A DNA stretch of 64,000 nt from Chrysomallon squamiferum (lineage: Eukaryota > Animalia > Mollusca): positions 25,358,001 to 25,422,000 of the forward strand of contig CM022677.1 of the NCBI GenBank assembly GCA_012295275.1, given 5' to 3'. The notes beneath the pieces were generated by a model. It was given only the letters and a program-made list of their open reading frames with translations. It did not search any database and was not told the DNA's origin. Every line of letters starts with the position of its first letter. The first letter of the stretch is position 1. This document shows, one piece after another, positions 5,566 to 59,155 of the stretch. A program made the position numbers and the translations under genes.

Positions 5566-6256
5566 ATGGCGTGTATTCGACTCTTCTTTCTCTCTTTCTT
5601 CGTTCTTTCATTTTGCCCTCACAACGCGGTTTCCAAGGGACACAGACGAATACACATCGCAGGGTTACTTCCCTTTAACAAGAGTTTCCTCTTCTCCGTG
5701 CAAAAAGTCCGGCCAGCCGTCGACATCGCCGTCAACAAGATCAAACAGCTCAACATGCCCTTCAAATACTTCAGCATCAACTACGGCGACTCCAACTGCT
5801 CGATCGCCAACGGCATGGACGTGGCCATCACGTTCTTCATCAACAACAAGGTGGACGTCTTCCTCGGACCGCCATGCGACTACGCAGCCGCGCCCGTTGC
5901 CAGGCAACTGCGCTACTGGAACGTTCCCATGGTGACGGCCGGAGCCATGGCCCGGGACTTCTACATCGACAAGAAGACCGAGTTCCAGCTGATGACGCGC
6001 GTGGGGCCGAACTTCAACTCGCTCGTCAGCTTCATCATCTCCGTCCTCACCAGGTTCACGTGGTCGAAGGTGAAGCTGCTGTACAACCCGTTCGGACAGC
6101 AGCACGTCGTGCACAAGTTCTGCCACATCGCCGTGGACGGCATCCACAAAGGTCTGCGCACGCAGAACGTGCTGAAGGTGAACCAGGAGTACTTCAAGTT
6201 CCACGACCTGGAAATCCTCGCGAAGATGGAGAAGGAGATCGGCAAAGAGTTTGCAA
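5566..6256 (+). CDS. Cassette A: first coding exon of an atrial natriuretic peptide receptor-like / receptor guanylyl cyclase (signal peptide + N-terminal part of ANF_receptor ligand-binding domain), 230 codons + 1 nt
   Basis: ATG at 5566 (CCACAATGG), hydrophobic signal MACIRLFFLSFFVLSFCPHNAVS, family motifs IHIAGLLP, VRPAVDIAV, YGDSNCS, VDVFLGPPCDYAAAPVARQLRYWNVPMVTAGA, LMTRVGP, FTWSKVKLLY, KFCH. Strong C/G-ending codon bias against AT-rich flanks. Ends at A|GTAAGT donor 6256/6257, phase 1. Confidence 0.93.
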
Positions 6257-9200
6257 GTAAGTGAATCTACTGTTGTCTGTGTTGTTAATGTCATTTTTAT
6301 TTCATAGTTATTGTTGTTGTTGGTGGTATTGTTATTATTATTATTATTATTATTATTATTATTATTATTATTAACATTATTATTATTAACATTATTATTA
6401 TTATTATTATTATTATTTTTATTATTATTATTATTAATATTATTGTTGTTGTTGTTCTTGTTGGTTTTGTTATTATTATTACTGTACTGAAATGGAATAT
6501 TATAAATGGCGATTATATTCCAAGGGAGACAAATCTACTGTGCTTATTACCGATTATGTTGACCTTAACTGTTGGTGATACCATTCCTACATCGTAAGGT
6601 AACATCAAATAACTGTTATTTATTTATTTATTTATTTATTTATTATTATTTTTTCTTCTTCTTCTTATTATTATTATTATTATTATTATTATTATTTAGC
6701 ATTAGTATTATTATTTTAAATTTCTAGCAACAGATAAATAGCTATTTGTTATTTATTTATCTGTTTACATAAACACTTACTTTTATTCGTAATACCGTGT
6801 TTTACAGTTACATGTTGCATCTACTTATATCCATCCTTATGTACAAGTATACTAATTGTTTTATTACAAGAACAAAACCTTGTATTATATTATAAATTAT
6901 TAATATAAGATTATAAAACGAAATTTTTCAGGGACATAACTCTGAATCAGTTTTGTGCTTTAGTTTGTTTTGTTTTGCTAATGATCTCCCCTGCCAAAGT
7001 CTTTAGTATTGAATTATTTAGCTCTCACTGAAAATGACGTGTCAGAAGAAACGATCCCAAAGACTTTGATTTCCAATTCTAATGACAGAACATTTCATTA
7101 AAATGTTTAACGTGAATTAAATTTATATCACTGCTTTCTTTGTTTTATAATAAACACAATTTTACATCATATGATTTTACGATAATATTTCTTCTGACAT
7201 TATACATCAAAGTAATATTTTTTTTATTTTTATTTGCGTGTGTGTGTGAGTATGTGTGTGTGTGTTTTAGTATATTGTTATAATAAAAGCCATTTTGTAT
7301 CAACACAGTGCACAGTTTTATGATAACTGTTCTTGTTATAATAACAACGCGGTTTTGCAGTAACAACTTTTTATAACAAATACATTTGTCACTGTATGTT
7401 TTCTGGTTGTTTTTTCTTTTTGTCTTTTTGTTGTTTATTGATTTTACTATTATTATTATTATTATTATTATTATTATTATTATTATTATTTCTGTGAGCA
7501 CATTCTTCTATCAACATATTTTAGTCAAGACGTTTTTGTATGAACAGCATTTTATATCAACATTTACAAGCTACGACTTATCTGAAATAAAAATTATTTA
7601 GTTATTTACTTTTATTTTTTTCCTTTGTTATATACATAAATCACTCTTTGTTTGTTTTATTTGTGTAACAAAAGGTTATCTATCGTGATGGATCCTGGGT
7701 CACTCTGCTCCTAAAACAACAGATTTATCAGTGAAAGGAATGCCATTTTAGAATTATTTTTCGCTAGAATAATATCTATTTAATGTCACGTGAGTTCACG
7801 AAAAATTTAAGTCTTAAGCTATGGCGTCATCTCTTTATGTTAAATTTATTTTCTCTTCTGAAAAGGTCAGACGAGCTGTATAAACTAGGGTCAAAGTTCA
7901 AACGATCATTAGACATAATTCTGTACTAAAAATTAAAGGTGCTTTCATACGACGTAACTTCGTCTGCTTCCAGTATCTGGTTTGATGAGATTAGAGTGAG
8001 GCATATGAACTAAATGTTATAAATATTCTCTACATTTTGCATTATATTTGTTCTTGTTTTTATCTTTATATATATATGTGTGTCTGTGTGTGTGTGTGTG
8101 TGTGTGTGTGTGTGTGTGTGTGTGGATTTATGGATTTATGTATTATTCTGACTGACATGATAAATCCAAACACTGAACATCAACCTACCTTTTTTTTTTT
8201 AAATCTACATTTGAAAATTCATTAGTTTAGTGTCTGTTTTATTTTTTTTCTCAAACTCCTCGGCTATTTTTTTTTATTATTATTTTTATTTATAAATTTG
8301 TTCTTGTTCTTGTTGCTGTTGTCACTAAGATTTTTTTTTCCCGAGTACACTAATAATAATAACAATAATAAAAATAATAATAATAATAATAATAATAATA
8401 ACAATAACATTCTGATATATTAAATCTGTCTTGAAAACATTTCTACGCAATTGTATTATTCTTAAAGGTCCCACTAATTAAACCGATTTGAGTGAACGCG
8501 CCTATACCAATATATCACTGCTGGCAAAGCCACATAATTTAGTCTAACAAAGACCAGTCTCGTTATCTGCATCAAAATCACTGGCTAGTGAAGTGATCTC
8601 TAATGTTACTGATAATGAATTGATATTTTGACCTTTGACCCGACAGTCTTGTTTTATTTCATTAGACTTACTTGATGGCAGTCTGCTGGTACCATTTATT
8701 TCTTTTTCTAAAATCAAAAGGTATACACACACTCTCTCTCTCTCTCTCTCTCTCTCTCTCTCTCTCTCTCTCTCTCTCTCTCTCTCTCTCTCTCTCTCTC
8801 TCTCTCTCTCTCTCTCTCTCTCTCGCTCTCTTTTTTTTTCTCTCTCTCTCTGTCTCTCTCTGTCTCTTTCTGTCTCTGTCTCTGTCTCTCTCTGTCTTTT
8901 TCGTCCTCTCTTTCATTCTCTCTCTCAATATATATCTAGAGGGATCTATACATAGATATCGGACAGAACTGTGTGTTATTCTCTGTGTATGTCTGGGTGT
9001 GTATGTGTATCTGTGTCTCTGTATTGCTTCCATGTACGTGTGAATTTTCTGTATGTGTCTTTATAATGTGTAGCCATGTGCGTGAATGCGTGCATGTGTG
9101 TGTGTGTATGTCTGAACACGACACACGAGCTCTTGGTTCAGATCTGTAATGTCAGGTTTATTTATTCCTGACCTTTTCATTGAGAAGAGTTAATAAAATA

Positions 9201-57385: not shown

Positions 57386-58449
57386 CTCGAGTGTCAACTT
57401 CATGCCACTGCCTCGCTCACCAAACATTGATTAAAACGTTATTTTGTGTGAGATGTACCTCTGCAGCAACTGTCTTTCTGTGAATCAACAATTACCTGTT
57501 CGATGTGTTGTTTAATTCACACAATGTGACAATCTTCAAATTCTGGACACTCGCTCAATTTCTTCGTTGTTAAAGGTATATTGATTCACGACCTTTTATA
57601 TACTGGAGAATGTGCTTTTGTAAGTCTCTCTTTTGTCCTTATTGAGAATACTTTTCAATCGAAGTATTAGATTTATTTTATTATTATTATTATTAAAACA
57701 GCATTCCTATCTCCAGTGTGTGGCTGGTCAAATTAAGTAATACGAAAACACACTCAAAAGTAATTAAACGTTATTTCTTGACATTTACCATGCAAATTAC
57801 ATGAGTTTAATATTTGTTCTATTAAATATGACCACTGGATAGAACAAAAGTCAACACTTCTTTATATTACCACTTACAAAATGGAGACGTCATGCGCTAA
57901 ATCACTGTTGTATTAATTTTAAACTGTAAAAGTTGACAGATAACTTTTTTTTCTGTTTATGCTTTTTCATGTGTATGGATCAGTTTTGTAACCCCTTTAA
58001 AATCTGTATGTGAAACAAAAAATAATAATAATAATTCATGCGGAAAATTACATGCATTGGTTTTCTTATCAGGTATAATTGTGTTCTGGAATTCTTAGAG
58101 AAAAGAACATTATCGAACCAGGATCTTTAACACGTTTGTAGACCAGGAATTTTTAATACGTTACAGACCAGGAATAATACATTGTGACTAAAAATACTTT
58201 TTGTTCTTTGTGTCTGGGTCACAAGTCTTTTTTTTTTTTTTCTGTCCTTGTTCACTTTTTGTATTACGGAATATTACTTAGTCATCGTTGATGTCACGAA
58301 CATATGAAACACGATCCTATCCGAAACGACACGAATGTCAGGTCATCGGGTATTTCCGTATTAACGAGTAAAAAGCAAATACAACGCCCTGTATTGAACA
58401 AACAAAGACGTTGAAAAAAAGGAAAAAAAAAAAGAAGAAGTTAGAACAG

Positions 58450-59155
58450 ATGGCGTGTATTCCCTCAGACGTGGTGGCAATGTCGTCGTTGTTCATTATC
58501 GCGTGCTTCTGTGTGACAGCTACGTCTTGCGAGAAATCCAACATCAACATCGGCGTCATTCTGCCGGTGGGAGGGCGGTTGCTGTGGGCGATGCACAAAA
58601 CGCGGCCCGCGCTCGAACTCGCCGTGTCGTCCGTGAACAACAACAGCGACCTCCTTCACGACTACTCCCTGCGCCTCCTCTACAGGGACTCCAACTGCTC
58701 GGACACCATGGGACCTCTGGCCGCCATCAACATGTACATCGAGAAGTCGGCGCACGTCTTCGTCGGGCCTGGCTGCGACTACGCCGTCGCTCCCATCGCT
58801 CGGTACTCCTACAGCTGGGGGATCCCCGTGCTGACCGCGGGAGCCCTGGTGCACGTGTTCCAGGACAAGAGCAAGTACCCGCTGCTCACGCGCATGATGG
58901 GCTCCTACTCGAAAGTGGGCAAGTCGTTCATGTCGCTGATCAAGAAGTTTGCGTGGAAGACGGTGGGCATGATCTACAGCGACCACAAGAGGAACCCGGA
59001 GAAAGGCAGCTCCAAGTGCTACTTCGCCCTGAAGGCGATTTTCCTCGACCTGGTGCGGTACACGCGCCAAGACTCCTGGTACACCAACTTCGACACCAAC
59101 GACGAAAACGTGGACTTCGAGTCGATGCTAAACGAAGCGAGACTTAACTGTAGAA
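58450..59155 (+). CDS. Cassette C: first coding exon of an atrial natriuretic peptide receptor-like / receptor guanylyl cyclase (signal peptide + N-terminal ANF_receptor domain), 235 codons + 1 nt
   Basis: ATG at 58450 (alternative in-frame ATG 58480), signal MSSLFIIACFCVTATS, motifs INIGVILP, TRPALELAV, YRDSNCSDTMGPLAAI, HVFVGPGCDYAVAPIARYSYSWGIPVLTAGA, YPLLTRMMGSY, FAWKTVGMIY, SKCYF. GC3-rich. Ends at A|GTAAGT 59155/59156, phase 1. Confidence 0.94.

Follow-up and report, generated by a model that had tools for sequence, protein, structure and literature searches.

A 64-kb stretch of the genome of the mollusc Chrysomallon squamiferum (contig CM022677.1, positions 25,358,001 to 25,422,000; hereafter the window, to whose numbering all coordinates refer) probably carries the variable 5′ region of one receptor guanylyl cyclase gene of the natriuretic peptide receptor type NPR1/2, which would provide three N-terminal halves for one shared body. 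The window holds three intact cassettes, A, B and C, with donors at the same phase-1 position and no exons of the body, i.e. of the receptor part after the cassette junction, between or after them. Cassette C is spliced to an exon outside the window. Judging from related sequences, we have little doubt that A and B would use the same acceptor as C and that the body would consist of the rest of the ectodomain, a transmembrane helix, a kinase-homology domain and a cyclase. We regard the array of variable first exons, in what is likely a gene for an NPR-type receptor cyclase, as real and conserved.

Three paralogous cassettes end at the same protein position

A, B and C are paralogous 5′ coding cassettes that follow one another on the plus strand (Table 1), each opening with its own ATG and a hydrophobic N-terminus that was judged by eye to be a putative signal peptide. 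The translations of 230, 240 and 235 residues, respectively, contain no internal stops. Cassette B is divided over two exons (B1 and B2), which join to a stop-free frame of 344 + 377 = 721 nucleotides (nt) and 240 residues, and its tblastn alignment is continuous over both. The donor sequences, with a slash at the exon end, are TTGCAA/GTAAGT for A, TTACAG/GTAAGT for B1, ACGGTG/GTAAGT for B2 and GTAGAA/GTAAGT for C; the B2 acceptor is a T-run followed by CAG. The phase-1 donors of A, B and C fall at the same protein position, one base into the codon, and no constant exons lie between the cassettes. Pairwise identity among the three is 29–31%, and their GC content at third codon positions (GC3) of 0.83 (A), 0.62 (B) and 0.86 (C) stands out from the 33% GC of the microsatellite-rich window.

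Matches to the Pfam domain ANF_receptor (PF01094) were obtained for A (E 5.9e-19), C (E 7.8e-28), B1 (E 4.7e-6) and B2 (E 2.7e-4, which falls below Pfam's cut-off). The similarity is confined to the profile's N-terminal portion, with the best stretches at positions 1–130 of 353, and apart from a weak periplasmic-binding match Pfam returned nothing else for the cassettes. All three retain the C60 and C86 positions, the first cysteine pair of the NPR ectodomain, and the best match to a solved structure is NPR-A (E 3.6e-27). A preliminary description of the window had listed three plus-strand units of these positions and lengths, each with its own ATG and signal peptide, the N-terminal part of ANF_receptor, a conspicuous GC3 and a phase-1 GTAAGT donor at the same alignment position, and had seen no body exons; all of these statements hold, the signal peptides as hydrophobic N-termini judged by eye and the lack of body exons after the searches given below.

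Two details of the cassette ends were observed in addition. The first 12 nucleotides, encoding MACI, are identical in A (5566–5577) and C (58450–58461) despite an identity of 30% and membership of old, separate classes. At the donors of A and B2 (GTAAGTGA, 6257–6264 and 15547–15554) an unspliced RNA would terminate two codons on and encode a short secreted fragment: the frames of A and B2 end at 6264 and 15554, and that of C continues to 59304.

Table 1. Features of the cassette array, in window coordinates
Feature	Position	Strand	Description
Cassette A	5566–6256	+	single exon, 691 nt, 230 codons + 1 base, phase-1 GTAAGT donor, class A
Cassette B, exon 1 (B1)	12355–12698	+	344 nt, ATG and signal-like N-terminus up to GPVCDY motif, phase-2 donor
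Cassette B, internal intron	12699–15169	+	GTAAGT ... T-run CAG
Cassette B, exon 2 (B2)	15170–15546	+	377 nt, phase-1 GTAAGT donor, class B
Likely 5′ untranslated region of cassette C	58240–58449	+	at least 210 nt under RNA-run contigs (X1 58240–58408, X2 58340–58608)
Cassette C	58450–59155	+	single exon, 706 nt, 235 codons + 1 base, phase-1 donor, class C, last cassette in window

Cassette C is joined to an exon beyond the window

Cassette C is present in five public runs. Contigs of four runs were compared with 58240–59230, namely of three RNA runs from one study and of run X5, whose kind is not on record. In all three RNA runs the contigs cover C, break off exactly at 59155 and then share an identical foreign sequence, and one of them extends 970 letters past this junction; run X5 reads through 59155 into the intron. 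The sequence after 59155 was not found in the window at up to 3 mismatches. Its 30 visible letters, together with the last A of cassette C, translate to IIVLCASQDA with ATT (Ile) as the first codon, a match to I/V-V/I-VLCAS, the motif conserved at the beginning of related bodies.

The window was searched for body exons and further cassettes by tblastn with 18 related receptor proteins and by six-frame profile searches with hidden Markov models (HMMs). Besides two matches at E 0.33 and 0.96, tblastn matched the four cassette segments only, and the cassette HMM found no fourth cassette in the window. Neither tblastn nor the body HMM gave a convincing body exon in the window; the HMM gave just low-complexity hydrophobic matches, the best of them on the minus strand (E 0.019, 1540–1803). 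We rejected this match: a Leu-rich repeat translation is aligned there with no more than the transmembrane segment of the profile. When pieces of a held-out Octopus body were planted, the body HMM recovered 36 of 42 pieces of 20 residues, 26 of 28 of 30 residues and all 21 of 40 residues.

Related genes carry several N-termini on one body

The closest relatives of the cassettes are gastropod proteins. The best long homologue of A, XP_048251029.1 of Haliotis rufescens, is a full-length receptor guanylyl cyclase that is 60% identical over the cassette and continues with IVVLCASPDS; the long-protein search with C yielded two unrelated-looking partial models and nothing more. With the body of XP_048251029.1 as query we obtained 480 matches, of which 120 were listed; the junction could be placed by alignment in 95 of these 120, and 20 named species had at least two usable rows. 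All shared-body figures refer to the matches listed. For 15 of the 20 species, same-species proteins were found whose bodies are 99.5–100% identical over 810–893 residues and whose N-termini are 22–49% identical, with the switch at the cassette junction. The molluscs among them are three abalones, eight bivalves and Biomphalaria; the others are the horseshoe crab Tachypleus, with two loci, the nemertean Lineus and the hemichordate Ptychodera. Bodies that differ by one residue differ at residue 1 (I or V), which varies with the cassette, as a codon split by a phase-1 intron would lead one to expect.

The RefSeq accessions are consecutive in Mercenaria, Biomphalaria, Lineus, Ptychodera and Haliotis rufescens, so that in these five the isoforms belong to one gene. 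The Mercenaria gene model combines six cassettes with 841/841 identical body residues, and three of the six are nearest to A, B and C of the window (42% each). H. rufescens carries A- and B-class cassettes on 833/833 identical body residues, and Biomphalaria has A-, C- and D-class cassettes on 839/839. Full-length relatives with A-, B- and C-class cassettes carry the domains PF07714 and PF00211, and those checked are NPR1/2-type cyclases.

The preliminary description had proposed one shared body beyond position 64000. The splicing of C out of the window in RNA contigs, the lack of body exons between the cassettes and the A-, B- and C-class cassettes on one body in Mercenaria gene models strongly support such an architecture, and for A and B of Chrysomallon we infer the joint. 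It had left open whether the body is of the NPR1/2 or the NPR3 type; with cyclases in the full-length relatives checked, the former is likely.

Short stand-alone models named ‘NPR3-like’ are common in the databases; of 84 full cassettes, 69 stop no more than 40 residues away from the junction. Body sequence is present in only 8 of 147 cluster representatives (P0128–P0274), tandem cassette repeats occur in 7 models, and an Atlas look-up returned ANF_receptor clusters of about 250 residues and nothing else. It is common for orphan cassettes to be entered under the name ‘NPR3-like’, those of spiders and clams among them. These short models are best read as cassettes extended into the intron, because the same cassette was also found on a full body (cluster 10). 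One vertebrate model was noted as well: KAG2462139.1 of the bichir Polypterus senegalus (P0128) contains two tandem units resembling NPR-A exon 1, each ending in ...GR, and may reflect either tandem first-exon cassettes in a vertebrate or the fusion of two neighbouring genes in one model.

Cassettes follow class and bodies follow species

In a quick tree of 82 cassettes, with long branches and with support from the Shimodaira–Hasegawa-like approximate likelihood ratio test (SH-aLRT) only, without bootstrap, C falls into a class of 27 rows (support 97) together with bivalves, gastropods, Capitella and one Lineus isoform. Classes A (support 95) and B (94) are separate within a group of 37 rows (98) that also contains another Lineus isoform and Helobdella. 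Identity is 34–46% within a cassette class and 24–36% between classes. The cassettes thus cluster by class across species, reaching nemerteans and annelids, and the bodies cluster by species (FastTree, 75 bodies). Because cassettes follow class and bodies follow species, the array is likely older than the divergence of molluscs from nemerteans and annelids. The cassettes of Tachypleus (P0105–P0119) and Ptychodera (P0123–P0125) group by lineage, apart from the spiralian classes, which suggests that they expanded or turned over independently at the same intron; this grouping would be compatible with a single bilaterian origin and also with repeated origin at one intron.

Gastropods (P0005–P0026; Haliotis, Patella, Lottia) possess several duplicated bodies, each with the same old cassette classes, and bivalves one body per species. 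Duplication in gastropods seems to have copied the array as a whole.

The swapped half contains ligand-pocket positions

A full-length Haliotis isoform aligns end to end with human NPR-A (1101 bits), which places the cassette junction between R208 and V209 of mature NPR-A. A cassette corresponds to mature residues 1–208, about half of the ectodomain, and presumably ends where exon 1 of human NPR-A ends. We take these residues to include the region of the head-to-head dimer, which is membrane-distal in NPR (PMC4049422, PMC9846370; articles given by PMC number are cited for the passages of their text that bear on the point). Arg14 of atrial natriuretic peptide is bound by Asp62 and Glu119 of NPR-A (PMC5471452), and both positions fall within the cassette. 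For the Asp62 position the usual residue is I in class A (5 of 7 rows), S in class B (6 of 8) and E or D in class C (22 of 27); at the Phe96 position Q occurs in 7/7 A rows, Y in 8/8 B rows and F in 24/27 C rows, and the Leu112 and Gly113 positions are likewise class-fixed. The Arg95 position is kept in nearly all rows, and the equivalents of Arg95, Tyr88 and Tyr120 are largely conserved over all classes.

The class-fixed pocket residues suggest different ligands or different pairing, and we lean slightly towards isoforms that would differ in ligand recognition or dimer pairing and have the same cyclic GMP (cGMP) output. With the same gene layout, however, the differences between cassettes could instead act mainly on tissue-specific expression, trafficking or basal activity, with one ligand common to all isoforms. 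The conserved equivalents of Arg95, Tyr88 and Tyr120 would suit such a role, as would the isoforms gcy-28.c and gcy-28.d of Caenorhabditis elegans, whose overexpression effects are alike and whose expression differs (PMC9249223). On the other hand, a short first exon suffices for a new promoter and a copy of 230 residues would be unnecessary; moreover, the classes were kept distinct over gastropods, bivalves and partly nemerteans, with class-fixed Asp62, Phe96, Leu112 and Gly113 positions. We regard a common ligand as possible but doubtful.

A further idea is that of an ancient modular receptor system, in which each class, older than the mollusc–nemertean–annelid split, would read its own peptide hormone, co-expressed isoforms would form heterodimers with composite sites, one cyclase would serve all and the layout would be bilaterian-wide; we consider it speculative and less likely than not. 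If it were true, 3 cassettes would give 6 dimer types and the 6 of Mercenaria 21, the arrays in chelicerates, a hemichordate, probably the nematode gcy-28 and perhaps the bichir would be ancestral or repeatedly re-evolved at one intron, and mammalian NPR genes with their single exon 1 would be the exception.

How a cassette may be chosen

In the mechanism that we propose, three cassettes with matching donors would lie 5′ of a body located beyond 64000. C is joined in RNA contigs from 59155 to an exon outside the window, its last A completing the first codon (ATT, Ile), and A and B would be spliced to that same acceptor. The choice is probably made by alternative promoters: each cassette would have its own, the cap-proximal donor would be joined to the first constant exon, and the promoter used would set the N-terminal half of the receptor. 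The swapped 208 residues would line the head-to-head dimer and the peptide pocket. The product would be a single-pass receptor cyclase with a promoter-dependent ligand-facing half and a common cGMP output.

Mutually exclusive splicing from a single upstream promoter or non-coding exon, as in Dscam1, is a different way to the same set of isoforms. Against it speak the separate ATG and signal-like N-terminus of every cassette, RNA-run contigs that run for at least 210 nt directly 5′ of the ATG of C with no joint listed there, and the separate working promoters of the gcy-28 isoforms (PMC9249223). Dscam1-like splicing is therefore unlikely in our view. It is improbable that C alone serves as a first exon, with A and B as silent relics or as short secreted ectodomain fragments. 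RNA evidence for C only, the stops two codons into the introns at the GTAAGTGA donors (6264 and 15554) and the many short ‘NPR3-like’ models could be read in this way, but A and B have intact frames, high GC3 and canonical donors, and B a canonical internal intron. In the models of Haliotis, Mercenaria, Biomphalaria and oyster, moreover, cassettes of classes A and B come with a full body, and the short models are best explained by continuation into the intron. Three separate interleaved genes, which the several paralogous bodies of gastropods might suggest, or a misassembly or haplotype duplication are very improbable given 64 kb free of body exons and the same shared-body layout in many independent assemblies. 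Haplotype duplication of the cassettes was rejected, their identity of 29–31% being too low.

Several points weigh against the reading of the window as the 5′ region of one NPR1/2-type gene with a shared body. Transcript evidence for Chrysomallon is limited to C, and the RNA support consists of contigs from a single study. Just 30 letters of the downstream exon are visible, so that we infer the cyclase, and with several paralogous bodies in gastropods this exon cannot be tied to one named paralogue. The isoforms of the relatives are automatic gene models, compared as proteins rather than as exon maps. Among the matches listed, Lottia, Gigantopelta, Physella and Pomacea have no shared-body pair, that of C. 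angulata involves a truncated partner and that of H. cracherodii is split over two contigs. The limits of the cassette tree belong here as well, B's own node reaching a support of 80. As to ligands, none was found for invertebrate NPR-type cyclases in the literature examined, and the cited passage of PMC8334353 gives the ligand of GCY-28 as unidentified.

Comparison with known systems

The isoforms of gcy-28 differ in their extracellular region. This gene is the nearest precedent that we found: also coding for a receptor guanylyl cyclase, it gives rise to isoforms from separate promoters, with different 5′ ends and a common 3′ end (PMC9249223), gcy-28.c and gcy-28.d having been handled with different 5′ primers and the same 3′ primer and being expressed differently (PMC9249223; also PMC3842693, PMC5225109). 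The likeness covers promoters and primers, and the precedent is a partial one. In one phylogeny, within the passage cited, the natriuretic clade is without any C. elegans gene (PMC1435932). RefSeq names one Haliotis rubra isoform ‘gcy-28-like’.

In UGT1A, tandem first exons are spliced to constant 3′ exons. The array in the window resembles UGT1A, the clustered protocadherins and sDscam in its tandem paralogous 5′ cassettes with their own starts in front of what are probably constant 3′ exons, and the chelicerate sDscam also in that a cassette may span more than one exon, as B does here (PMC4835542 for sDscam). Unlike these systems, the array belongs to a hormone-receptor enzyme and not to an adhesion molecule or a transferase, it has few cassettes (three here, up to six seen) of old cross-species classes instead of large lineage-specific arrays, and the switch lies inside the ectodomain, so that variable and constant parts must fold together. 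Despite the similar gene layout it is no member of these protein families: the cassettes match ANF_receptor in Pfam and contain no cadherin repeats.

Full-length relatives have the same domain order as NPR-A and NPR-B (NPR1 and NPR2). The mammalian genes for these two have one first exon each. There, in contrast to the array, receptor diversity comes from whole-gene duplicates, NPR-A and NPR-B each being a single gene in mammals (PMC1435932).

No account of a conserved array of this kind turned up in our literature search for these receptors; subscription papers and supplements lay outside the search, and an earlier description is possible. The preliminary description had overlooked the gcy-28 precedent and the RefSeq isoforms. 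The array is implicit in these isoforms and foreshadowed by gcy-28, but its character as a system common to several phyla, with cassette classes that stay stable, has apparently gone undescribed.

With this array, the gene design of protocadherins and UGT1A reaches a hormone-receptor enzyme that is conserved in several phyla. The array also accounts for a large set of mis-annotated short ‘NPR3-like’ database proteins. Should a single locus produce three to six receptors with only about 30% likeness between their ligand-facing halves, ligand searches or knock-downs that use a single isoform or the shared body would miss or pool distinct signals; the cassette classes tell which constructs to test.

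Finally, short patches between B and C (21376–21600, 44776–45000 and others) are non-repetitive and GC-/CpG-rich, show no receptor similarity and are possibly repeat fragments or regulatory elements.

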